Below are positions 3,044 through 47,864 of a DNA stretch of 62,000 bases, in pieces (the stretch's first letter is position 1; every line of letters begins with the position of its first letter). The DNA is from Chiloscyllium plagiosum (taxonomy: Eukaryota). The notes beneath the pieces were generated by a model. It made no database searches. It had not been told where the DNA came from and worked only from the letters and a program-made list of their open reading frames with translations. The stretch covers positions 2,515,286-2,577,285 of the forward strand of contig NC_057751.1 in assembly GCF_004010195.1 (NCBI RefSeq). Direction: 5' to 3'. The position numbers and the translations under genes were made by a program.

Positions 3044-3420
3044 AGAGGAAGTGAGGACTGCAGATGCCGAAGGGTCAGAGTCGACAAGTGTGGTGCTGGA
3101 AAAAACAGCTCGTCAGGCCGCATCCGAGGAGCAGGAGAGTCGACATTTTAGACATTCGCCCTTCATTAGGAATGTGGAGAGGGAAAGGGGCTGAGAGACA
3201 AATAGGGGGGGTGGAGGTAGAGCTGGGGGTAAGGTCAGTGAGATGGCGATAGATGGGCGAAGGTAGGAGCTGATTGTGAAAAGTCGGTGGAGAGGGTGGA
3301 GAGGATAGGTGGGAAGGAAGATGGACAGTTCGGACAGGTCAAGAGGACAGTACCGAGTTGGAAGGTTGGATCCAGGATGAGGTGGGGGGAGGGGTGGGGA
3401 CATTTGGAAACTGGTGAAGT
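3044..3420 (-). mobile_element. Penelope-like element pLTR fragment with degenerate hammerhead
   Basis: Begins GAAGTGAGGACTGCAGATGC like 30439 and 19502; its purine-rich body is the reverse complement of 4800-5080 and 9720-9980. Confidence 0.85.
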
Positions 3421-7590: not shown

Positions 7591-8477
7591 GGTTAAGGAT
7601 TATTGTACTTTGGGTTTGGATCTTGTCTTGGTGGTTTTCAACCACATAAATTCTGGGGACACAGCCCAACAAAACGTCTGCAGAGAAGGTGTATTTTTAT
7701 GAGGGAGTGCTTTTCCATGCTGAGACCTTCGTTATCATAATGAGTCCTTCCACATCCTTGGTAAACATTCTGTACAATCAATTAGAGCTTCTCAAAGAAA
7801 AAATTTCAGCCAAACCAGTTTCTATTTAAAACATCAGAACCTGATTGATGGATCTCCTGAGAGGCAATTAAGATGGTTGGAGCTTGAAGAGACATTTGCT
7901 CACGGAGTAATATAATCTATTTATATGAAGAAATGACAAAGCTGCCTCTTTACACAATGTGGAACCAAAGCACCTTTATCTGTGTGCTCTCACCCCACTC
8001 TTCTGAGCATTTTAAGATCATAAGACCATAAGACTCAGGAGTGGAAGTAAGGCCACTTGGCCCATTGAGTCCACTCTGCTATCTAATCATGGCTGATGGG
8101 CATTTCAACTCCACTTTCCTGCACTCTCCCCGTAGCCGTTAATTCCTTGCGAGATCAAGAATTTATCAATTTCTACCTTGAAGACATTTAATGTCCAGGC
8201 CTCCACTGCTCTCTGTGGCAATGAATTCCACAGGCCTACCACTCTCTGGCTGAAGAAATGTCTCCTCATTTCCATTCTAAATTGACCCCTTCTAATTTTA
8301 AGGCTGTGCCCATGGGTCCTAGTCTCTCCGCTGAACGGAAACAACTTCCCAGCATCCACCCTTTCTAAGCCATGCATTATCTTGTAAGTTTCTATTAGAT
8401 CTCCCCTCAACCTTCTAAACTGTAATGAATACAAACCCAGGATCCTCAGCCGTTCATTGTATGTTAGGCCTAACATT

Positions 8478-8959
8478 GTCTCAGCATGCTCCTGCCCCAC
8501 TGAACTCATCTCTACCTACCTCGACACTGTCCTATCCTCCCTAGTTCAGGAACGCCCCACATATGTTCGAGACACCACCCACGCCCTCCACCTCCTCCAA
8601 GACTTCCGTTTCCCCGACCCCCAAAGCCTCATCTTCACCATGGATATCCAATCCCTCTACACCTCCATCCGCCATGACCAGGGCCTCCAAGCCCTCCGTT
8701 TTTTCCTCTCCCGACGTCCCCAACAGTACCCTTCAACCGACACTCTCATTCGTTTGGCCGAACTGGTCCTCACCCTTAACAATTTCTCCTTCGAATCCTC
8801 CCACTTCCTCCAGACCAAAGGGGTAGCCATGGGCACACGTATGGGCCCTAGCTATGCCTGTCTCTTTGTTGGCTACATAGAACAGTCAATCTTCCGTAAT
8901 TACACCGGCACCACTCCCCAACTCCACTACATTGATGACTGCATTGGCGCCACCTCGTG
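8478..8959 (+). pseudogene. PLE reverse transcriptase core fragment (~160 open codons)
   Basis: Part of ORF 8457..9026; PLE/telomerase-like RT motifs run up to YIDDC, then homology breaks off. Confidence 0.9.
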
Positions 8960-9977
8960 GGTTGTTAATTCAAGATATTTTATGCCTATAAAATCTCGTA
9001 AGGCTATTCAAACAGTGATACAATAATCCAATGTAGATTTTGATTATTTCATGCATTGCAGATTGTGATCTCTCTCTTTTTGGTTAGAACCAATGTTCAT
9101 GTTATCTACATCAGTACATTCTATCTGGACATTCAGCAGCAGCCTTTTTACCTCCCTGAAAAGGGGTCATTGAGGCCAATTGTGGTATCCTGACTAATTG
9201 AGCTGGCAGTTTTCTTCTTGTAGATTACAGTTTGTGCTGTGATGGTTAGCTATGCATTAAGTATTGGTATGCATTAAGTACTTTCCCCTGCCACCGCAGG
9301 AACTGTTAAACCTGTGCCCACACCTCCTCCCTCACCTCCATCCAAGTCCCTAAAGGAGCCTTCCACATCCATCAAAGTTTACTTGCACATCCACTAATAT
9401 CATTTATTTTATCCGTTGCTCCCGATGCGGTCTCCTCTACATTGGGGAGACTGGGCGCCTCCTAGCAGAGCGCTTTAGGGTACATCTCCGAGACACCCGC
9501 ACCAATCAACCAAATCGCCCCGTGGCTCAACATTTCAACTCCCCCTCCCACTCTGCCAAGTACATGGAGGTCCTGGGCCTCCTTCAGTGCCGCTCCCTCA
9601 CCACCAGACGCCTGGAGGAAGAACGCCTCCTCTTCCGCCTCGGAACACTTCAACCCCGGGGCATCAATGTGGACTTCAACAGTTTCCTCATTTCCCCTTC
9701 CCCCACCTCACCCTAGTTCCAAACTTCCAGCTCAGCACTGTCCCCATGACTTGTCCTACCTGCCTATCTTCTTTTCCACCTATCCACTCCACCCTCCTCC
9801 CTGACCTATCACCTTCATCCCCTCCCCGGCTCACCTTTTGTACTCTATGCTACTTTGTCCCCACCCCACCCTCCTCGAGCTTATCTCTCCACGCTTCAGG
9901 CTCTCTGCCTTTATTCAGGCTTTTCCAGCACCACTAATCCAGAATCTGGTTTCCAGCATCTGCAGTCATTGTTTTTA
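8478..9977 (+). mobile_element. Penelope-like element (RT, GIY-YIG, pLTR) nested in CR1
   Basis: RT: TMDIQSLYTSI, QTKGVAMGTRMGPSYA, YIDD. GIY-YIG: NIIY..RCSRCGLLYIGETGR, AQHFNSPSHS, LQPRGINVDF. Probable TSD CCTA(A/C)CATT at 8469-8477 and 9978-9986. Confidence 0.95.
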
Positions 9978-12409
9978 CCTACCATTCCAGGGATCATCCG
10001 TGTGAATCTCCACTGGACAAGCTCCAGTGCCATTATGTCCTTCAAGAGGTGTGGGGCCCAAACTTAGACACAGTATTCTAAACGGGTCCTAACGAGAGCT
10101 TTATAAAGTCTCAGAAGCACATCACTGCTTTTATATTCCAACCATCTTGAGATAAATGACAACATCACATTCGCTTTCCTAATCACGGACTCAACCTGCA
10201 AGTTAACCTTTAGAGAATCCTGGACTAGCACTCCCAGATCCCTTTGTACTTTGATTTTATGAATTTTCTCACCATTTAGAAAATAGTCCTTGCTTGTATT
10301 CTTTTTTCCAAAGTGTAAGTCCTCACATTTGCTCATGCTAAATTTCATCAGCCATTTCCTAGACCACTCTCCTGAACTGTCGAAATCTGTCTGCAGCTTC
10401 CCCACCTCCTCAGTACTACCTGCCTGTCCACTCAACTTCGTATGATTGGCAAACTTCACCAGAATGCCCCCAGTCTCTTCATTCACATCATTAATATAAG
10501 TTGAACAGCTGCAGTTCCAACGCTGAACCCTGCGGGACACCACTTGTCACTGCCATTTTGAAAAAGGACCTTTTATCCCAACTCTCTGCCTTCTGTCAGA
10601 CAGCAAATCCTCAATGCATGCCAGAAGCTCACCTTGAACATCAGGGGCCCTCACCTTACTCAGCAGCCTCCCGTGAGGCACCTTATCAAAGGCTTTTTGG
10701 AAGTCAGATAGATAACATCCACTGGGTTTCCCTGGTCGAACCTACTTGTTACCTCTTCAAAGAATTCTAACAGGTTTGTGAGGCACAACTTTCCCTTACT
10801 AAATCCATGCTGACTTGTTGTAATACAACCCTGAACTTCCAGGAATTTAGAAATCTCTTAATGATGGATTCTAGAATTTTACCAACAACGGAGGTTAGGC
10901 TAATCGGCCTATAATTTTTCATCTTTTGTCTTGATCCTTTCTTGAACAAAAGGGTTTTCCAATCATCTGGGATTTTCCCTGACTCAAATGACTTTTGAAA
11001 GATCACAACCTACGCCTCTGCTATTTCCTCAACCACCTCCCTCAGTACTCTAGGATGTAACTCATCGGGACCAGGAGATTTGTCAATTTTTAGACCTTGT
11101 AGCTTTTCTAGCACTTTCTCTTTTGTAATGACTACCATACTCAACCCTGTCCCCTGACTCTCCAAAGTTGTTGGGATATTACTCATCTCTTCCACTGTGA
11201 AGACTGATGCAAAGTACTTATTAAATTCTTCAGCTGTTTCCTTATCTCCCATCGCTAACCTTCCAGCATCAATTTGGAGCCGCCCAGGTTACTTTTGCTT
11301 CTCGTTTATTTCTTAAGTATTGAAAGAAACTTTTACTATCATTTCTAATATTACTGGCTAGCCTACCTTTATATTTGATCCTCTCCTTCGTTATTTCTCT
11401 CTTTGTTATCCTCTGTTGGTATTTGTAGTCTTCCCAATCTTCTGATTTCCCAGTGCTCTTGGGCACTTTATAGGCTCTCTTGTTCTCTTTGATACATTTC
11501 CTGACTTCCTTTGTCAGCCATGATGTCTAATTCCCCACCCCCCCCACTTCTTTTCTTTAAGATGAACCTCTGTATTGTGTCCTCAGTTACACCCAGAAAC
11601 TCCCGCCATTGTTGCTCGACTGTCTTTCCTGCTTGGCTGTGCTTCCAGTTGATTTTCATCAATTCCTCTCTCATGCCCTTGTAATTAGCTTTGTTTAACT
11701 GTAACACCATTACATCCGATTTTGCCTTCTCTCTTTCAAACTGCAGACTGAACTCGACCATATGATGATCGCTGCCTCCTAAGTGTTCCCTTACTTTAAG
11801 ATCTTTTATGAAGTCTGGCTCATTACACAACACTCAGTCCAGAATAGCCTGCTCCCTCACAAGCTGTTCCAAAAAGCCATCCTGTGAGCATTCCATGAAT
11901 TTCCTTTCTTTGGATCCACCGGCAACATTATTCACCTAGTCCACCTGCACGTTGAAGTCCCCCATGATCACTGTGACCTTGCCTTTCTGACAGGCCCTAT
12001 CTATTTCCTAGTATATCTTGTTCTCCTGGTCCTGACCACTGTTAGGAGGTCTGTACACACTCCCATTAAGGTCTTTTTGCCTTTGTGGTACCTCAACTCC
12101 ACCCACACAGACTCCACATCATCGGAACCTATGTTATTTGTGCCATGGATTTAATTTCATTCTTAACTAACAAGGCCACCCCACCTCCTCTGTTCCCTTT
12201 TGCAAGGATTTGCATTTGCAGAGAATGCCTTTGATTCGTGGCACAGCCAAATGGATTGTTGAACATAGCTCTCAATATGCAGCATACATAGATCCATTCA
12301 ACATTTCATTTTGATTTCATTCCAAGTTGAATTTTGTCTGTTGCTGGGTGGCTATTTCAGCTGTGATTCGATGGAAAACACTTTCTTCATCTGAGCGCTC
12401 GAGTTGGTT

Positions 12410-12870
12410 CAAGTTGCAACTCAACAAGCTGGAGTGAAATATTGAAGCAAATGCTAATGGTGCAGAGGAAATGCTGCACTTCTGAATTGTCTTTCAGAAG
12501 TGAGTTAAACGAAGAACACCCCTTCCCTCTCAAGTTGAGCATGAAAGATTCCACAGCAGTACAGTGCATCAATAAAAAGAAGGGAGAAAAACAGAAATTT
12601 CTGGAAAAGCTCAGCAGGTCTGGCAACACCTGTGCAGAGAAATCAAACATTTCATATCCAGTGATCCTCCTCAGAACTGGGAAAGGGTCACTTGGCCCAA
12701 AGATATTTCATTTCTTTCCACAGATGTTGCCAGACTTGCTGAGCTTTTCCAGCAATATCTGTTTTTGTTTCTGATTTCCAGCATCTGCAGTTCTTTTGAT
12801 TTTTATTGAGAAAAAGAAAGGATTCTTTCAAGTGTTGACCATATTTGTCCCTCAACCACCATCGTTGAAA
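12410..12870 (+). mobile_element. Deu-domain SINE (SacSINE1/AmnSINE1-like), interrupted by a PLE palindrome
   Basis: GTCTTTCAGAAGTGAGTTAAAC...AAAGATTCCACAGCA...CCATATTTGTCCCTCAACCA matches the recalled Deu core. Confidence 0.7.
12586..12810. mobile_element. Palindromic mini-element made of two head-to-head PLE pLTR ends
   Basis: CTGGAAAAGCTCAGCAGGTCTGGCAACA versus TGTTGCCAGACTTGCTGAGCTTTTCCAG; flanking duplication AAAAAGAA(G/A)GGA at 12574-12585 and 12811-12822. Confidence 0.8.
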
Positions 12871-18806: not shown

Positions 18807-19501
18807 AAAGGAAAAGTATAAAGTTTCCAAAGTCTAGTGGCAGTTCAGAAATATTTAAAAAAGAATGACCAAAAGACGAAAGAAAAATTCATGTGTGAGA
18901 GAATGCAAGCTGGAAAGATAAAAACCGTGAGAGTTTCCATGAATATGTAAAGAAGATAAGAGTTAACAAAGTGATGGTTGGTCTTAAACAAAGTCAGACT
19001 GGAGAATAAAGAAATGGCAGATTAATTGAACAGGTATTTTCCATTTATTTTCACTGTAGGATATTCAAGTAACTTCCAAGAAACAGCTACAAATTAGGAA
19101 ATGGTACAGCATGAGTACCTCAGGGAAATCATGATCACCAGAGAAGTGGCATTGAGTAAATTGTTGGAGCTGTTGATTGGCGAATGGCCAGGTCGTAATG
19201 AATTTCATCAAGAATCTTAAAAGAAGTGTCCAGTGAGGTTATTGATGCATTGATTGTTATTTACCAAACCTGCCTTGATTTGGGGATGATCTGATTTGAT
19301 TGGGAGATAGTGAATGTAATTGCTTTATTTAAAAATAAAGAAATACAGAAGATGGGAAACTATAGGTCAATTGGCTTAACATCTGTCACAGGCAAGGTGT
19401 TAGAAGCTAGGACGATGGCAGAAGATTACAGTTCAGGGTAACCGGGCAGAATCAACATAGTTTTGTGAAAGGGAAATCATGTTTGTCCAATCTTTTGGAG
19501 T

Positions 19502-19625
19502 AGAAAGTGAGGTCTGCAGATGCTGGAGATCAAAGTTGAAACTTTATTGCTGGAACAGCACAGCAGGTCAGGCAGCATCCAGGGAACAGGAGATTCGACG
19601 TTTCGGGCACAGGCCCTTCTTCAGG
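19502..19625 (-). mobile_element. 124-bp PLE pLTR-end insertion with 13-bp TSD
   Basis: Direct repeat AATCTTTTGGAGT at 19489-19501 and 19626-19638; sequence matches 30443-30566. Confidence 0.92.
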
Positions 19626-19630
19626 AATCT
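19591..19630 (-). ncRNA. Minimal type-I hammerhead ribozyme motif, apparently intact
   Basis: Minus strand reads AGAUUC-CUGAAGA-A-GGGC-CUGU-GCCC-GAAA-CG-UC-GAAUCU: complete core, 4-bp stem II, palindromic ACGU stem III, 6-bp stem I. Confidence 0.85.
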
Positions 19631-20554
19631 TTTGGAGTGGCAACACATGCTGTGGACAAAGAGAAACCAGTGTATGTACTGTGTGTAGGTTTCCAGAATG
19701 CACATGATTAGATGTCACATCGCATGTCATTGTGGAAAACAAAGCTCATGGTGTTGGAGGCATCAAATTAGCATGAATTAAAGATTGGATAGCTGACAGG
19801 AAGGAGACTGTAGAATTTTCTGCAAATGTTAATGGGGCTTTTTCAGGTTGGCAAGATGTAATCAGTAGGAGAAAGTGAGGACTGCAGATGCTGGAGATCA
19901 GAGTCAAAACGTGTGGCACTGGAAAAGCACAGCAGTCATAATTATTGCGCTACTGCGATTGGTGGTGGGCCCTCACCTGTTTACAATTCATATAAATGAC
20001 TGAGATGAAAGGATGGAACATATGTTTGCCAAGGTAGAAAGTAAATTATGATGAGAATATCAAGATACTACATAAATATATGTCTTGTTTAAGTGAGTGG
20101 GGAAAGGTGAGAAGAGAATATGGGAAAATGTGAAGTTGTCCATTTGACAGGAAAATGGCATTTGGCAATAAAAACAAAACCATATCATCTTAGTGGAGAG
20201 AGATTGCAGAGGGGACTGGCTGTCCTTGTGTATGAATCACCAAAGGTTAGTTTGAAGGTAATTAAGAAACTTAATAGAATGTTACCATTTATCATGAGAG
20301 GACTTGAATACAAAAGTAGGGAGGTTATGCATCAGCAACACAGGGCACTGGTCAGAGTACATCTGGAGAACTGTGCACAGTGCTGGTCACCTTAATTAGG
20401 AAAGAGTGTAATTGCATTAGAAACAATTCGGCGAAGATTTACCTGACTATGGCCTGGAATGTAGCAGATTGGTTTTCAGGCTGGGTTTCTATCCACAGGA
20501 GTGAAACAACAAAATTCTGAAGTGTCTTAACAGAGTAGATGTTGTGTAACTATT

Positions 20555-29375: not shown

Positions 29376-30731
29376 AAATTACATATTTTATGTAGCTTTC
29401 AGTCACCAGTAATGAAAATTTTTATCCTGAGTGTTGAAATACGTAAGGATCTTTCAATAGGCACATGTACCCTGTTATATTTCCTACATTCCAACAGGAG
29501 CTGCACTTTGACAAGGGTACATAAGTTCATAAACATTTGAGCAAGTTTTGAGCTTGTCGAAGATCCCATACAGATTGCAAGCACTTCTTTGTTCTTATTG
29601 TCTCACACTCTGTTTGATGACACTGTGAAGGTAGTTCCCTATATAGGTATTGTCAAATGAAGCATTGCAAGCACAGTGGTATAGATGATGGCAAATTCAC
29701 GGAGCAGGCGGTCACTGTATTCTATCTTTTAATCTATTCATGTGGTGTGTGCTTTACTGGCTTGGTCAGGTTGGTTTTGCAACCTGTCCCAATAATCCAT
29801 CCCTTACACGAAAGAAAGATTACAATAAATCTGTAGTGCAATGCTTCTAACCTCTTGCACTCCAGTAATTGTATTATTGTCATCAGATCATATTAAAAAA
29901 TGAAGAAAGTCATGGTCCAACATGAAGAGAAACAAATGGACAACGTGTTCTTCTCTGTCTTTCCACGGTTTATTAGTGGATGACATGCACATCAGCAAAT
30001 GTAATTTATTTTTGATTCTTTCTCAAATGTGAGCATGCCTGGCAATGCATAAGCCAGTTTGGAATCATTTCTGTGTCAAACAAAATCAATGTAACTAAAT
30101 TCCAGTGATCAGAAATTGAACAACTTACAGACATGTGATTCTTTTCCCCAGAAGCTTTCTACCAAACTCTTTGTGAGTTAATATGATGTTGTCCAGCTTT
30201 TCTGAACTCCCAAATTATTATTTCTATCAGAAACATAGCACAAACAATCTGCTAATGTTATTTAGCAAGTCAAGTAACTCCTGTGGAGCAAAAATAGAGT
30301 TAATGTTCAGGACAATGTCCTGTCATTACATCACAGTCCAATACAGCACCAAATGAGGCTATTCAGCTCAATATGTCTGCATTGCTCTTTGCAGAGGTGT
30401 ATTCCATTATATTGCATTTCATGCCCCTACATATTTACTAGGAGAAAGTGAGGACTGCAGATGCTGGAGATCAGAGCTGAAAATGTGTTGCTGGAAAAGC
30501 GCAGCAGGTCAGGCAGCATCCAAGGAGCAGGAGAATCGATGTTTCGGGCATGAGCCCTTCTTCAGGAATGAGGAAAGCGTGCCAAGCAGGCTAAGATAAA
30601 AGGTAGGGAGGAGGGACTTGGGGGAGGGGCGTTGGAAATGCGGAGGTTAAGGTGAGGGCGATAAGGTGAGGGTGATAGGCCGGAGTGGGGGTGGGTGGAG
30701 AGGTCAGGAAGAAGATTGCAGGTTAGGAAGG

Positions 30732-31285
30732 NNNNNNNNNNNNNNNNNNNNNNNNNNNNNNNNNNNNNNNNNNNNNNNNNNNNNNNNNNNNNNNNNNNNN
30801 NNNNNNNNNNNNNNNNNNNNNNNNNNNNNNNNNNNNNNNNNNNNNNNNNNNNNNNNNNNNNNNNNNNNNNNNNNNNNNNNNNNNNNNNNNNNNNNNNNNN
30901 NNNNNNNNNNNNNNNNNNNNNNNNNNNNNNNNNNNNNNNNNNNNNNNNNNNNNNNNNNNNNNNNNNNNNNNNNNNNNNNNNNNNNNNNNNNNNNNNNNNN
31001 NNNNNNNNNNNNNNNNNNNNNNNNNNNNNNNNNNNNNNNNNNNNNNNNNNNNNNNNNNNNNNNNNNNNNNNNNNNNNNNNNNNNNNNNNNNNNNNNNNNN
31101 NNNNNNNNNNNNNNNNNNNNNNNNNNNNNNNNNNNNNNNNNNNNNNNNNNNNNNNNNNNNNNNNNNNNNNNNNNNNNNNNNNNNNNNNNNNNNNNNNNNN
31201 NNNNNNNNNNNNNNNNNNNNNNNNNNNNNNNNNNNNNNNNNNNNNNNNNNNNNNNNNNNNNNNNNNNNNNNNNNNNNNNNNNNNN
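30732..31285. other. Assembly gap (N run)
   Basis: 554 consecutive N. Confidence 1.
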
Positions 31286-31698
31286 GACCAACCAACCCAA
31301 CCACCCCGTGGTTCAACACTTCAACTCCCCCTCCCACTCCACCAAGGACATGCAGGTCCTTGGACTCCTCCATCGCCAGACCATAGCAACAAGACGACTG
31401 GAGGAAGAGCGCCTCATCTTCCACCAGCAACCCTCCAACCACAAGGGATGAACTCAGATTTCTCCAGTTTCCTCATTTCCCCTCCCCCCACCTTGTCTCA
31501 GTCCCAACCCTCGAACTCAGCACCACCTTCCTCACCTGCAATCTTCTTCCTGACCTCTCCGCCCCATCCCACTCTGGCCTATCACCCTCACCTTATCACC
31601 CTCACCTTGACCTCCTTCCATCTATCACATTTCCAACGCCCCTCCCCCAAGTCCCTCGTCCCTACCTTTTATCTTAGCCTACTGGACACACTTTCCTC

Positions 31699-31734
31699 AT
31701 TCCTGAAGAAGGGCTCATGCCCGAAACGTCGATT
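31699..31734 (+). ncRNA. Minimal hammerhead motif with intact core (mirror copy at 30533-30570, minus strand)
   Basis: AUUC-CUGAAGA-A-GGGC-UCAU-GCCC-GAAA-CG-UC-GAUU; stem I is weak (one U-U mismatch). Confidence 0.75.
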
Positions 31735-31842
31735 CTCCTGTTCCTTGGATGCTGCCTGACCTGCTGCGCTTTTCCAGCAACCCATTTTTAGCCCTACATA
31801 TTTACCACCATAAAGAGTTTATCCCATTCAGTTTTCAGAATC

Positions 31843-32150
31843 AAAAACTCAGGAGCTCTGTCAGCATATGTAGAAATAAAGCAGAGTTAACATCATGAGT
31901 TCGGTGACTCTTCATCAGAACGGAATAAAAACTGAAAGAACTGCAGATGCTGTAAATCAGTCACAAAAACAAAAGTTGCTGCAAAAGCTCAGCAGGTCTG
32001 GCAGCATCTGGCAGAGAAATCAGAGTTAATGTTTCAGAGTTCTGAGGAAGAGTCACTCGACCAGGAATGTTTTCCAGCAATTTCTATTGTTGCTTCATGA
32101 CAACAGGTTTGTTTTGTTTTAAATATCCAGCATCTGCAGTTGTTTGTTTT
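31843..32150. mobile_element. Cluster of short PLE pLTR ends, including a second palindromic mini-element (31925-32150)
   Basis: CTGCAGATGCTG...AAGCTCAGCAGGTCTGGCAGCATC and the inverted CCAGCATCTGCAG; HHR-like TTCTGAGGAAGAGTCACTCGAC near 32040. Confidence 0.75.
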
Positions 32151-35472: not shown

Positions 35473-35580
35473 AGTTCTAATTTCAATGATGCAGCAATCC
35501 CTCAGTGTTGACCTCTCACAGTATAATTCTCCCTCAGTACTTACTCTCTGATGGTGCAACATTCTGTAAGTACTGACCCG

Positions 35581-36681
35581 AATGCAAAGACTAGAATGGA
35601 CATCCCTTACCACTATACAGCCTAAATTTGAGATCCGCTATGTGGGTGACACCGTTGTTGTTACCAAATGCGCTCAACTGGAAGAAACCCATCAACTCAT
35701 AAACAGCATTCTCACTGGCACAAAATTAACCAAGGGGAAAGAGAACAAGACTTCCCTTCCTGGATGTAATGGCTGAATGCAGGGCCAATTGTGAGTTCCA
35801 GATCAGTGTATACAGGAAGGCCACCCAGACAGATCAACTATGTCAGAAACCATCCCAACAGCTACAAACGGAGCTGCATCAGATTATTGTTCAAGCAAGC
35901 CATAACACAGTGCAGCACTCCAGAACAGCACAAAGCTGAAGAAGAACACCTAAAGGCATCTTCAAACACACTCGTTACCCAAAAAGCCCAATCTGCCGCT
36001 ACCTACACAACAGGAAGATACAACACGTCCAAATACATTGCTCGCACTGCCACACATCAAGGACATATCGAAAATGACCACCAGACTACTCCGACTGCTA
36101 AGTATCATGGTAGCCCACAAACCAACAACTACATTACAACAGCTACTAATAGGTATGAAGGATCCCATATACACAAGTAACAAAACCAACGTTAAATACA
36201 AAATACCACGTGAAGACTGCCACAAACATTACATAGGGCAACCTGGAAGAAAACTAGCCATCAGGGTACAGGATCACCAACTAGCCACCAAGAGACATAA
36301 TCAGCTATCACTTGTATCCATACATGGACAAAGAAGGACGCCAAGTTGACTGGGACAATGTATTCATCCAACGACAAGCCAAGCAAAGATATGCACGGAA
36401 ATTCTTGGAGGCTTGGCATTCAACCTGGAATTCCATTAACAAACATGTAGAGTTTGACCCCATATACCAACCACTGAGAAACAAAACCGGAAATGATGCC
36501 ACCCACCTCAGCAAAGCGGGACACATAAATAGCAAGTGGGGTAGAATACCAACACTTCACCGGAGGCGTACTGATGATGTTACCTGGTGTGGTGATGAAA
36601 CATCTGCAAACTTACTAGCTCAGCGAGCAAGTCATCAACCTCATCCACAACCTGAACTGCAAATCTTCTCAAAAACTTCGC
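35581..36681 (+). mobile_element. Penelope-like element (Poseidon-like), RT C-terminus to GIY-YIG and pLTR, decayed
   Basis: IQPKFEIRYVGDT (YVDD variant), NHPNSYKRSCIRLLFKQA, NVKYKIPREDCHKHYIGQPGRKL and RKFLEAWHS; related to 20934-21619. Confidence 0.92.
36568..36607 (+). ncRNA. Minimal hammerhead motif, near intact
   Basis: GUA-CUGAUGA-U-GUUACC-UGGUGU-GGUGAU-GAAA-CA-UC-UGC; stems I and II pair; stem III is ACAU rather than ACGU, consistent with CpG decay. Confidence 0.75.
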
Positions 36682-37635
36682 ACTGACCTGTCATCAATGC
36701 AGTGGCACTCAGGACTGACACTCTGACAGTGTGGCACTCTCTGCAGTATTCCATCAGAATGACTAGAAGTCGTGTCACTAAAATCAAATAAAGAACGAGA
36801 AATAACTTCTCACCTTGTGAACTTCTGAACTGCAGAAATTCTATTTTCTTTCTATATTTTGTGTCAAAGCATCTGCCCTATGTTTTATTCATGAATGAAT
36901 ATGTGCAGACTTGCATTTCTAATTTGATGATCTTTCTCTCTCTACCGTTTATTAAAGAAGAAGTTTGCATGAAATAAATCGGGTTATTTTTCTGTAAATG
37001 ATGGAATCTGGTGTCAACAGTTTTGAGGCCCAGATAACCAGTCCTTCAGGCACATTGATTACTTTGGTCATTTTATTGCATATTTACACATTTGTGATGG
37101 CCTGTGGAACATCAGGGTTTGATTATTAGTGCTTTCTTCCCAATACCTTCCTCAAATATCTGTGTTTGAACTATAAACTACCTGAACTACCTTAATGTGA
37201 AACGTTAACTCTTTCTCTTCCATAACAGACATCTACCCTCCCAGCACGTTTTGCTGTTGCTTCATATTTCCGATATGCGTAGTATTTTGAAGCTGTGGAG
37301 GTCCTTTGAAGCCTAGTAGTTGTTAAAATTATTGGAATTGACAGCCATTTTGGACACAACAAATATAATGAATTTGTTTTCAGTGATGTTGTTTGAGGGA
37401 AGACATTGGCCAGGAAAGAACCTGCCCCCTTACTTCATTGCAATGGCACAATGCGCCACAAGACCTGATCAGACATTAGTTTAACCTGTCATCTGAAAAA
37501 GTGGACCTCAGGTAATGTGACATCCTCTCAGGTTTGCCTCCATTGGCTGAGATCTTATACTAAGTCTCTAAATTAGGATGGAACTGACGAATTTGGCAGA
37601 GCGATGACAGTGCTGCACATTTGTCTGATATTTGA

Positions 37636-45789: not shown

Positions 45790-46958
45790 ATACAGCATCC
45801 CAGATTACCTTGATCCATGACATTTCACCTACGGTCACAGCAGTTCATGACAGAAGCTTATCTGACTGGTTCCACACTCATCCCTGGAACATCAGGGCAG
45901 AAAGAACACCTCGGTGAGACTCTTACTTTTTGACTTTAGCTCCACCATCAACACAATAATTCCAATAAAACTCATCTTCAAACTCCAATATCTGGGATTT
46001 TGCTTCCTTGACTTCCTGACCCGCAGAGTGCAATCAATAAGAAAAGGTGACAGCACCACCTTGACAATAATCCTTAACACCAGTGCTTGCAAGGCTGCGC
46101 GTTCAGCCCTTTATTATTTTTATGCTCACGACTATGTGGCCAAATTCATCATAGAGGATTGGATCTCAAACAGCAACGAGACAGAGTACAGGAAAGAGGT
46201 AGACAGCTTGGTGGCATGGTGTAAAGACAACAATCTCTGCCTCAGTGTCAATAAAATAAAGAAACTAGTCATTGACTCCAGGAAGCAGAACAGAAGTCTC
46301 TATCAATGATGCTGAGGTGAAGGTGGTTGAGAACTTCAAGTTGCTTGGAGTAAACTCGACAACCTATACTGGCCCATTGACATCAAAGCGATAGTCAAAA
46401 AAGAAAACCAATGTGTCTGGTTCCTCAGAAGGGTCAGGAAATTCATCTTGTCCAAAATGATTCTTACCAATTTTTATAAATGCACTACTGAAAGGATGTA
46501 CTTCGGATGCTTTATAGTTGGTACGGCAACTGCTCTGCCCAAGACCACAAGAAATTACAGAGTGTTTTGGATCCAGCCCAGTCCATAACGAAAACCAGCC
46601 TTCCTTCTTTTGATTCAGTCTACACTTCTCATTGCCTCGGAAAAGCAGCCAAAGTAATGAACGACCTCTCCCACCCTGGTTATTCACTCTTGGACTTCCT
46701 TCCTTCAGGCAAAAGATACAAAAATGGGAAACAGCATACAAATAGATTGAAGAACAGCTTCTTCCATTACTAGACTTATGAACAATCATCCTCAGAAATT
46801 AGAGTTGATCTTTCTCTGCACCTTCTGTGTAGCTGTAGCACTCAATTCTGAATTCTGATGTACTTATGAAAGGTTTGATTTGTGTGGTTAGCACACCAAA
46901 CAATAATTTTCACTCTATCTCAGTACATGGGACAATGATAAACCAAATCAAAATCAAA
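45790..46958 (+). mobile_element. Rex1/Babar LINE, RT and 3' end, decayed
   Basis: VRLLLFDFSSTINTIIPIKLI, EYRKEVDSLVAWCKDNNLCLSVNKIKKLVID, WYGNCSAQDHKKLQ and TNRLKNSFF; CAAATCAAAATCAAA tail. Confidence 0.9.
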
Positions 46959-47722
46959 CAGATGTGCAAGCTATGTAGCAACTACGCAGATGTTTGTTCA
47001 AGCCTGTCTGGAATAACTGTGCCCAGTTTTTGCCACCACATGTCAGGCAGAATGTACAGTTACACTTCCTTAAAATTGGCAGCCTTAGGGCAAAGGCTGT
47101 GCTGGACTTTAGATTTCAGCTCAGTTGTTTTCACCAGTAGACTGCTCAAGCTAATCTGGGTCAGGTAGGGTCATAGGTCAGGTCATAGGAATAGATTGGC
47201 ATGCAAATGGTGGAACAGACTAGACTATTAGACTTGGAGGTGTGCAGCACAGATTCATCAGAATGATGATGATTCTTCAGTCCTCTGTTGAAAGACAGGT
47301 CTGATTTTTCAGCATTACAAATTGCAACATGCCAAGGGCAAGGAGGTGGATCCAGTGGAATGGGGAATGAACCTATGCAATTGGTAGCAATCTCATACCA
47401 TGCAGCAAACTTGACCTCAAAAGACTCTGAGTTCATGTGGCAACATACATTTGTACCTGCATGTTGTAGTCCAGAGCCAAGGACACTGATGCTGGAGGCT
47501 CCAGTTTTTTGTTTGCTTACCAGGACTGTCTGCCCCTCTCACAGCTTGCCATTGGCAAATGTTGGAAGAATTTGCAAGCTGGTCTTCTACCTGTTTGACC
47601 CCACGATGAATGCACCTTCCTCAGCCTTCAAATTCTGGAGTGGGGCTTGAACTGGTGGCTCAAAGGTAGCGATGCTCCCCAATGCAAAATAAGAGCTTTG
47701 CCTGAATGAAACTGGGGGTGAA

Positions 47723-47807
47723 AATGTGTTGCTGGAACAGCGCAGCAGGTCAGGCAGCATCCAGGGAGCAGGAGAATCGACATTTCGGGCATAAGCCCTT
47801 CTTCAGG
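47723..47807 (-). mobile_element. 85-bp PLE pLTR-end insertion with 13-bp TSD, containing a hammerhead motif
   Basis: Direct repeat AACTGGGGGTGAA at 47710-47722 and 47808-47820; minus strand reads CUGAAGA-A-GGGC-UUAU-GCCC-GAAA-UG-UC. Confidence 0.9.
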
Positions 47808-47864
47808 AACTGGGGGTGAACAGGGTTAAATATTGAGGACATGTTGCGGAGGCCACATGTATTT

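Follow-up and report, generated by a model that had tools for sequence, protein, structure and literature searches.

We found that the 124-bp insert at 19502–19625 (minus strand) of the window, by which we mean the whole stretch of 62,000 nucleotides that was analysed, is a real, well bounded and young insertion, an unremarkable representative of a known class. With a probability of roughly 80%, it is a young copy of the end of a Penelope-like element (PLE), which has a genuine target-site duplication (TSD) and was likely made by the endonuclease and reverse transcriptase (RT) that the element encodes. The same reading holds that its hammerhead is predicted to be silent when alone, that the catalytic core is intact because of the youth of the copy, and that the two outer pairs of stem I derive from host DNA by chance.

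The insert is bounded by a genuine target-site duplication

The two 13-mers, AATCTTTTGGAGT, lie at 19489–19501 and 19626–19638 (plus strand). This identical repeat could not be extended, and it encloses 124 bp, or 127 bp when an AAT microhomology (see below) is counted. When 20,000 boundary pairs were drawn at random, 3 had a 13-bp direct repeat at such a spacing, which is roughly what repeated sampling of this locus itself would give.

The orthologous site is empty in organism B, a second species, and has one 13-mer there. One 740-nt contig in each of two DNA runs from two studies (X9 and X12) spans this site; the contigs cover 19270–19472 and 19626–19850, with 17 letters between. One 13-mer would leave 16 letters between 19472 and 19626 and two would leave 29, the interval being known here by its count (17). 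As the site in organism B is empty and has 17 rather than 29 letters, the TSD arose together with the insertion. The initial annotation had described a 124-bp insert with a perfect 13-bp TSD, and we confirmed the exact coordinates from the sequence and the reality of the duplication by this comparison. The possibility of an illusory TSD, where the right 13-mer is diverged host sequence of the LINE, was ruled out by the same count. When the site was aligned with two further LINE copies, the 13-mer on the right fell into the host columns next after the left one; the site shows a loss of ∼10 nt relative to those copies that is older than the insertion.

In organism A, a right-flank contig (19626–19850) of the DNA run X7, which belongs to a separate study, fits no further at 19626, where 33 letters remain, and it has the base of organism B at 19678. 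An empty allele in organism A would yield such a contig, and we suspect that the insertion is polymorphic.

The recipient is a decayed LINE ORF2 remnant (19000–20392, plus strand) having 57–59% identity to the LINE at 10585–11249; we take it to be of the CR1 type from its motifs, not from a tree. Among 150 of the 177 stop-free frames and six further chosen frames, we found only transposon-type Pfam matches and no host-gene exon, in a scan that short exons would escape. The same LINE has a second end fragment of the family, lacking the hammerhead, at 19859–19935, 230 bp from the insert, and no TSD of at least 8 bp was found around this fragment. Another LINE remnant occupies 45866–46770, where the frame 46331–46585 matches Pfam PF09004; it is probably transposon-derived and not a host gene.

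Assignment of the insert to a Neptune-type element

A blastn search of the window gave seven further pieces of the family with 75–100% identity, named here by their positions (3.0k, 5.0k, 9.9k, 19.86k, 30.4k, 31.7k and 47.7k), and three pieces of a more distant family. The 124-bp insert is 88–91% identical to the ends of the 30.4k, 31.7k and 47.7k copies. Upstream, the 31.7k copy (91% identity over 82 nt) continues into a pyrimidine-rich UTR and then into a C-terminal GIY-YIG fragment, which is 73% identical (33/45 amino acids) to the frame 9354–9713; the latter follows an RVT_1 frame at 8388–9023. These frames are part of an older long relative (8388–9982, plus strand; Pfam RVT_1, E = 5.7e-7; GIY-YIG, E = 2.9e-5), in which RT, a Cys-rich linker, GIY-YIG, UTR and the terminal piece follow each other and the hammerhead is deleted.

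Between RT and endonuclease this relative, which has an in-frame stop, carries the linker C-x4-C-xx-C. It conforms to the pattern CX2-5CxxC, a signature of both Neptune and Nematis. From its sequence we assign the 124-bp insert to the end of a Neptune-type PLE, Neptune-type referring to the linker and not to a tree. The earlier description of the insert as a PLE pLTR end is thereby upheld through the family identity that links it to the GIY-YIG and RT frames; the insert comprises pLTR plus tail. In the 31.7k and 5.0k copies, the hammerhead is in the terminal repeat and shares its strand with the ORF.

A counterpart of the insert is a sibling micro-insertion at 47710–47820 (minus strand), where 85 bp (47723–47807) between 13-bp TSDs end at the same hammerhead edge, lack the tail and have the palindrome decayed to AUGU. 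The family also has a two-armed, inverted insertion (30425–31805, unstranded), which is flanked by 14-bp direct repeats and includes an assembly gap (30732–31285); its right arm carries the GIY-YIG fragment, the pyrimidine-rich UTR and a hammerhead with an intact core. Thus TSDs of 13, 13 and 14 bp were found in three of the six copies examined. From the hammerhead edge to the 3′ end the two arms measure 131 and 93 nt, as compared with 124 and 85 bp for the two solo inserts. The difference is an optional 3′ tail of ∼38 nt (19502–19540, minus strand), present also in the 30.4k arm and missing from the 31.7k and 47.7k copies; a PLE tail has been defined as 30–40 bp (PMC11167929; Craig et al. 2021). 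Next to it, an AATAAA hexamer (19543–19548, minus strand) falls within a block diagnostic of the subfamily of the insert (19540–19546). We also observed that the arms of the two-armed insertion differ in their 3′ ends, one being long and one short, as though priming had taken place at each of the nicked strands.

The minus strand carries a complete minimal type I hammerhead motif

The minus strand reads as a type I hammerhead with all core bases, having a stem I of 6 bp, a stem II of 4 bp and, where stem III would be, the palindrome ACGU. In the 5′ strand of stem I (19630–19625), C19625 is element sequence, AUU (19628–19626) is the microhomology of element and target, and G19629 and A19630 are of the host only. 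The CUGAAGA core (19624–19618) is followed by an extra A at 19617, between A9 and stem II, which is typical of PLE minimal hammerheads. Stem II (19616–19613/19608–19605) opens with G10.1–C11.1 (G19616–C19605), has the loop CUGU and was predicted with a pair probability of 0.88–1.00 in all contexts. Then come GAA (G12-A13-A14; 19604–19602) and the palindrome (19601–19598), which from sequence and folding would form stem III only with a second copy. C17 is at 19597, and hammerhead numbering predicts cleavage after GUC, between 19597 and 19596. The 3′ strand of stem I, GAAUCU (19591–19596), has an A at 19594 that makes a U–A pair where older subfamilies have a U–U mismatch. All these positions are on the minus strand.

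The locus shows these features of PLE minimal hammerheads, namely the CUGANGA, GAAA and UH core elements, the extra nucleotide after A9, G10.1–C11.1 and the palindromic 15.2–16.2. A complete minimal type I hammerhead with a 6-bp stem I and a palindromic stem III had been claimed before; we found every core base of it, and the predicted cut at 19597/19596 had been placed correctly.

Folding of the region gave a z score of −2.4, with 2 of 200 shuffles equally good. A minimal-hammerhead descriptor run over the whole window returned five matches with a stem I of at least 2 bp, only this locus having 6 bp; in 100 first-order Markov simulations the corresponding numbers were 0.02 and 0 per window. 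Rfam covariance models gave nothing at the gathering threshold in the window and no hammerhead up to E = 10 locally, and one candidate, TCL6_1 (E = 1.2), was discarded as far under the threshold. No match to the hammerhead motif was obtained among viral contigs.

Contribution of the host to stem I

All four longer copies carry ATTC upstream of the core on the element strand, and hence AAT at 19626–19628 is common to element and target. Because AAT is such a microhomology, G19629 and A19630 are all that the host contributes; four of the six stem I pairs are encoded by the element in the subfamily of the insert (hereafter the 19.5k subfamily) and two come from the host. The view that the 5′ strand of stem I lies mostly in the target-site copy has to be given up on this account. 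From local base frequencies, two host pairs would arise by chance in 4–6% of the edge-ended copies of the 19.5k subfamily, i.e. in about 1 in 20.

That the host flank helps the fold was, on the other hand, supported by modelling. In six window sizes, the pair probability of inner stem I was 0.90–1.00 for the native sequence and 0.11–0.72 when the two host bases were barred from pairing, and it was ∼0 in the 31.7k copy. The two host bases are thus predicted to stabilise stem I.

Abundance and youth of the 19.5k subfamily

The family is very abundant in the DNA runs: we obtained 26,436 family contigs from X7, 13,820 from X9 and 17,035 from X12, among which 3,621, 275 and 322, respectively, were at least 99% alike. 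The diagnostic T at 19594 made up at most 36% of the summed depth in X7 and <3% in X9 and X12, and the summed contig depth at 19540 was 1.3 million in X7 versus 4,092 in X9 and 8,067 in X12, depth not being copy number in either comparison. The 19.5k subfamily is far better represented in organism A than in organism B.

Decay was evident among the relatives. In five other copies, 4 of 10 CpG positions of the palindrome were changed, and core plus palindrome were retained in only two of six aligned copies. Differences among five related copies amounted to 2/55 in the core, 22/207 downstream and 13/20 in loop 2, all being small counts. As siblings show CpG decay, the intact core is attributed to the young age of this copy, and its intactness fits youth.

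Predicted cleavage competence

Stem III cannot close in a single copy, because a loop of 2 nt would be needed. A double hammerhead of two molecules was calculated at −23.5 kcal/mol, as compared with −24.6 kcal/mol for two monomers, and the best dimer had no stem III; these ViennaRNA values are rough, since the catalytic core is not modelled. The copy has the canonical helix lengths of 6 and 4 bp and is better in this respect than its siblings, a point that speaks against its predicted silence.

Published work on related ribozymes includes both uncut and cleaving examples. A single minimal hammerhead of S. mansoni showed no detectable cleavage and its dimers little (PMC4209133). The anole Poseidon hammerhead needed the element's protein for cleavage, was dispensable for insertion in vitro and left no ends in RNA-seq at the cut position (PMC11167929). 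Of nine dimer elements of Xenopus, eight stayed uncut (bioRxiv 2026.07.22.740005). On the other side, axolotl retrozyme monomers with a weak stem III were cleaved by 6–22% per hour (PMC7229834). Extrapolating from the examples that were uncut or dependent on protein, we predict that the lone copy is catalytically silent. The suggestion that the locus self-cleaves any minus-strand transcript is accordingly not favoured by our analysis, given the 2-nt loop of stem III, a host LINE on the plus strand, no minus-strand transcript or host exon found in the frames scanned, and published monomers that were uncut or dependent on protein.

A proposed origin of the insert and of its 5′ edge

We propose that the GIY-YIG endonuclease would nick the host LINE twice, 13 nt apart, and that the plus-strand 3′ end at 19501 would prime RT at the outer internal start site of the element; the tail would be included because priming was at this outer site. 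The template would be uncleaved RNA, since the DNA copy spans the cut site. Synthesis would stop at the hammerhead's upstream edge, the most likely cause being run-off of an RNA that begins there, a step to which we give just under an even chance. Finally, the host 3′ end in ATT may anneal to the cDNA end in AAT and prime the second strand. Such a mechanism has been shown for anole Poseidon, which belongs to a different clade from the Neptune type.

The 5′ edge of the insert recurs in the 47.7k copy (85 bp, another subfamily). It also recurs in X7, where 4 of the 11 back-jumping joints among those listed (the best 11 of 26) leave at 19627, 19628, 19628 and 19629, although the homology of the query ends there, which is a possible bias. 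The consensus of the initiator is YYANWYY. The edge is the A of TCATTCC, and a match to YYANWYY was found in two of the four longer copies, the two young ones, whereas the two older ones fail; initiator-like heptamers occur once per 48–88 positions, so the match is weak.

Further support may come from the anole element. In Poseidon PAc, the hammerhead is at the start of the ORF and RT begins 111–118 nt into the ORF (PMC11167929), so that priming on the 5′ copy of a PAc-like site together with RNA run-off would give inserts of such a size. In the same study two internal RT starts were described, ATT was the preferred cut and uncleaved RNA was the dominant substrate. The two 3′ ends found here, 38 nt apart, match the tail and the two internal RT starts of anole Poseidon. 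By contrast, in D. virilis the start site has been placed 46 bp before a 75-bp intron that ends at helix I, i.e. well upstream of the hammerhead, and this position is evidence against a start at the hammerhead edge.

Taken in full, the idea that fixed-edge micro-insertions are run-off cDNAs of 85–130 nt, made by RT from an internal site to an initiator at the first base of the hammerhead, with a few % of the newest subfamily gaining a canonical 6-bp stem I from the host, is put forward tentatively, as odds of about one in three would warrant. If run-off is true, each insert would show where transcription begins and where the two RT starts lie, so that PLE priming could be traced throughout the genome; the RNA start and the RT starts of a vertebrate Neptune-type element would have been mapped from DNA alone, and there would be a built-in path from PLEs to retrozyme seeds.

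Two other origins of the edge or junction were considered and rejected. If the edge were a 3′ splice site, which is the situation in D. virilis, an AG would have to precede ATTC, and the longer copies have none. Priming of a host overhang on the 3′ strand of stem I would yield an inverted junction, and none was seen. We also noted that 31660–31700 and 3169–3215 each contain a polypyrimidine tract ending in YAG, ∼15–25 nt upstream of the edge, which resembles a 3′ splice site.

Contigs of X7 that jump from 19627–19629 back to 19568–19595 imply tandem pieces of 35–60 nt with the hammerhead core. These pieces are possible seeds of tandem retrozyme-like arrays.

Alternative explanations

The shared edge need not be a transcription start. 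Host strands left by the endonuclease with an end in ATT might capture the cDNA at AAT, an intermediate might be cut at ATT, or RT might stall after the hammerhead; any of these would leave the element and its predicted silence unchanged, and we consider them together a serious contender at somewhat less than even odds. They are favoured by the microhomology of ATT/AAT at the insert and of TT/AA at 47.7k, by the ATT preference at the ORF–pLTR junction of anole Poseidon (PMC11167929) and by the microhomology-mediated 5′ junctions of rotifer PLEs (PMC3846280). Moreover, five of the eight family pieces in the window extend beyond the edge and one stops before it. However, the X7 joints that leave at 19627–19629 resume within another element copy, with one or two untemplated letters and no ATT target, and the initiator-like heptamer lies exactly at the edge in two young long copies.

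Two further explanations were considered. It is improbable that short copies propagate themselves as a non-autonomous family, resembling SINEs or retrozymes, which has its own short RNA or circle and is mobilised in trans. The copy is solitary and begins upstream of the cut site rather than at it; inserts of 85 and 124 bp from two subfamilies have a common edge, as expected of run-off or truncation; and if the promoter is located in the UTR upstream, where D. virilis has it, the copy would lack one. The definition of a retrozyme also requires at least two tandem hammerhead units. Nevertheless, the short copies have fixed ends, TSDs and a very high abundance, the 19.5k subfamily has AATAAA and X7 contigs have short tandem pieces. 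In rotifers, pLTR sequences suffice for mobilisation in trans (PMC3846280), and animal retrozymes have been proposed to derive from pLTRs and to leave monomers (bioRxiv 2026.07.22.740005). Very unlikely, in our judgement, is that the host flank completes an active ribozyme that cuts minus-strand transcripts at the locus. All core bases are there, the 6-bp stem I is predicted to be stable only with the two host bases, and the hammerhead could get help from the element's protein or from pairing in trans with RNAs of this abundant family. Against this, stem III is impossible in the monomer and dimerisation in trans brings no predicted gain, the host LINE is on the opposite strand with no host-gene exon in the frames scanned, and the insertion is young, absent from organism B and provided with host pairs at a frequency expected by chance.

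Relation to known systems

Dispersed single minimal hammerheads tied to truncated PLEs were already described in 2014 (Cervera and De la Peña 2014, PMC4209133), and the locus alone matters little, being one among very many similar pieces. It is, however, a dated and cleanly bounded example, possibly still polymorphic, and it bears on the role of the PLE hammerhead and on why short copies stop at its upstream edge. A literature search turned up neither a description of this family nor a proposal that such inserts arise by run-off, most subscription journals, Repbase and supplements being outside its scope.

The insert resembles the 2014 motifs in being of type I with the full core, in the extra nucleotide between 9 and 10.1, in G10.1–C11.1 and the palindromic 15.2–16.2, and in that those motifs are mostly dispersed single ones. 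It differs in helix II, which has 4 bp here and 7–8 bp in S. mansoni, and in helix I, which reaches 6 bp only via two host bases. With the endonuclease-containing (EN+) PLE units (Craig et al. 2021; Arkhipova et al. 2013) the family shares RT followed by a C-terminal GIY-YIG, the Cys linker, a pLTR with hammerhead, an optional tail of 30–40 bp, inverted truncated copies, TSDs and microhomology junctions, whereas the insert is the last 124 bp only and the TSDs are of 13–14 bp here, as against 8–10 bp in the rotifer descriptions consulted. Anole Poseidon PAc (Frangieh et al. 2024, PMC11167929) likewise has two 3′ ends one tail apart, a junction at ATT and an uncleaved hammerhead copied into DNA; it is from a different PLE clade, and the accessible text does not describe run-off micro-insertions that end at the hammerhead edge.

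Animal non-LTR retrozymes (PMC7229834; bioRxiv 2026.07.22.740005) are also non-coding, hammerhead-bearing and pLTR-related, and monomer derivatives of them have been described. In contrast to these, the insert is not tandem, has a minimal rather than a canonical hammerhead, is shorter than the usual unit of 150–450 bp and is known here from DNA alone. The nearest hammerhead copy on the same strand is 10.9 kb away. As the insert is solitary and a non-LTR retrozyme needs at least two hammerhead units in tandem, it falls outside this class, and the name of a tiny retrozyme-like element is not appropriate for it. LTR retrozymes, which have a type III hammerhead in two LTRs and a 4-bp TSD, were likewise rejected, the insert having one motif of type I and a 13-bp TSD.

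Other hammerhead-like remnants in the window

At 12576–12807 and 31924–32139 we observed short fold-back inserts that belong to a related family and whose hammerhead-like centres are decayed. A different GIY-YIG-like remnant at 35570–36700, which has no Pfam match and which we presume by motif to be of the Poseidon type, ends in a separate minimal hammerhead (36571), in which stem II has 6 bp and the palindrome is decayed.
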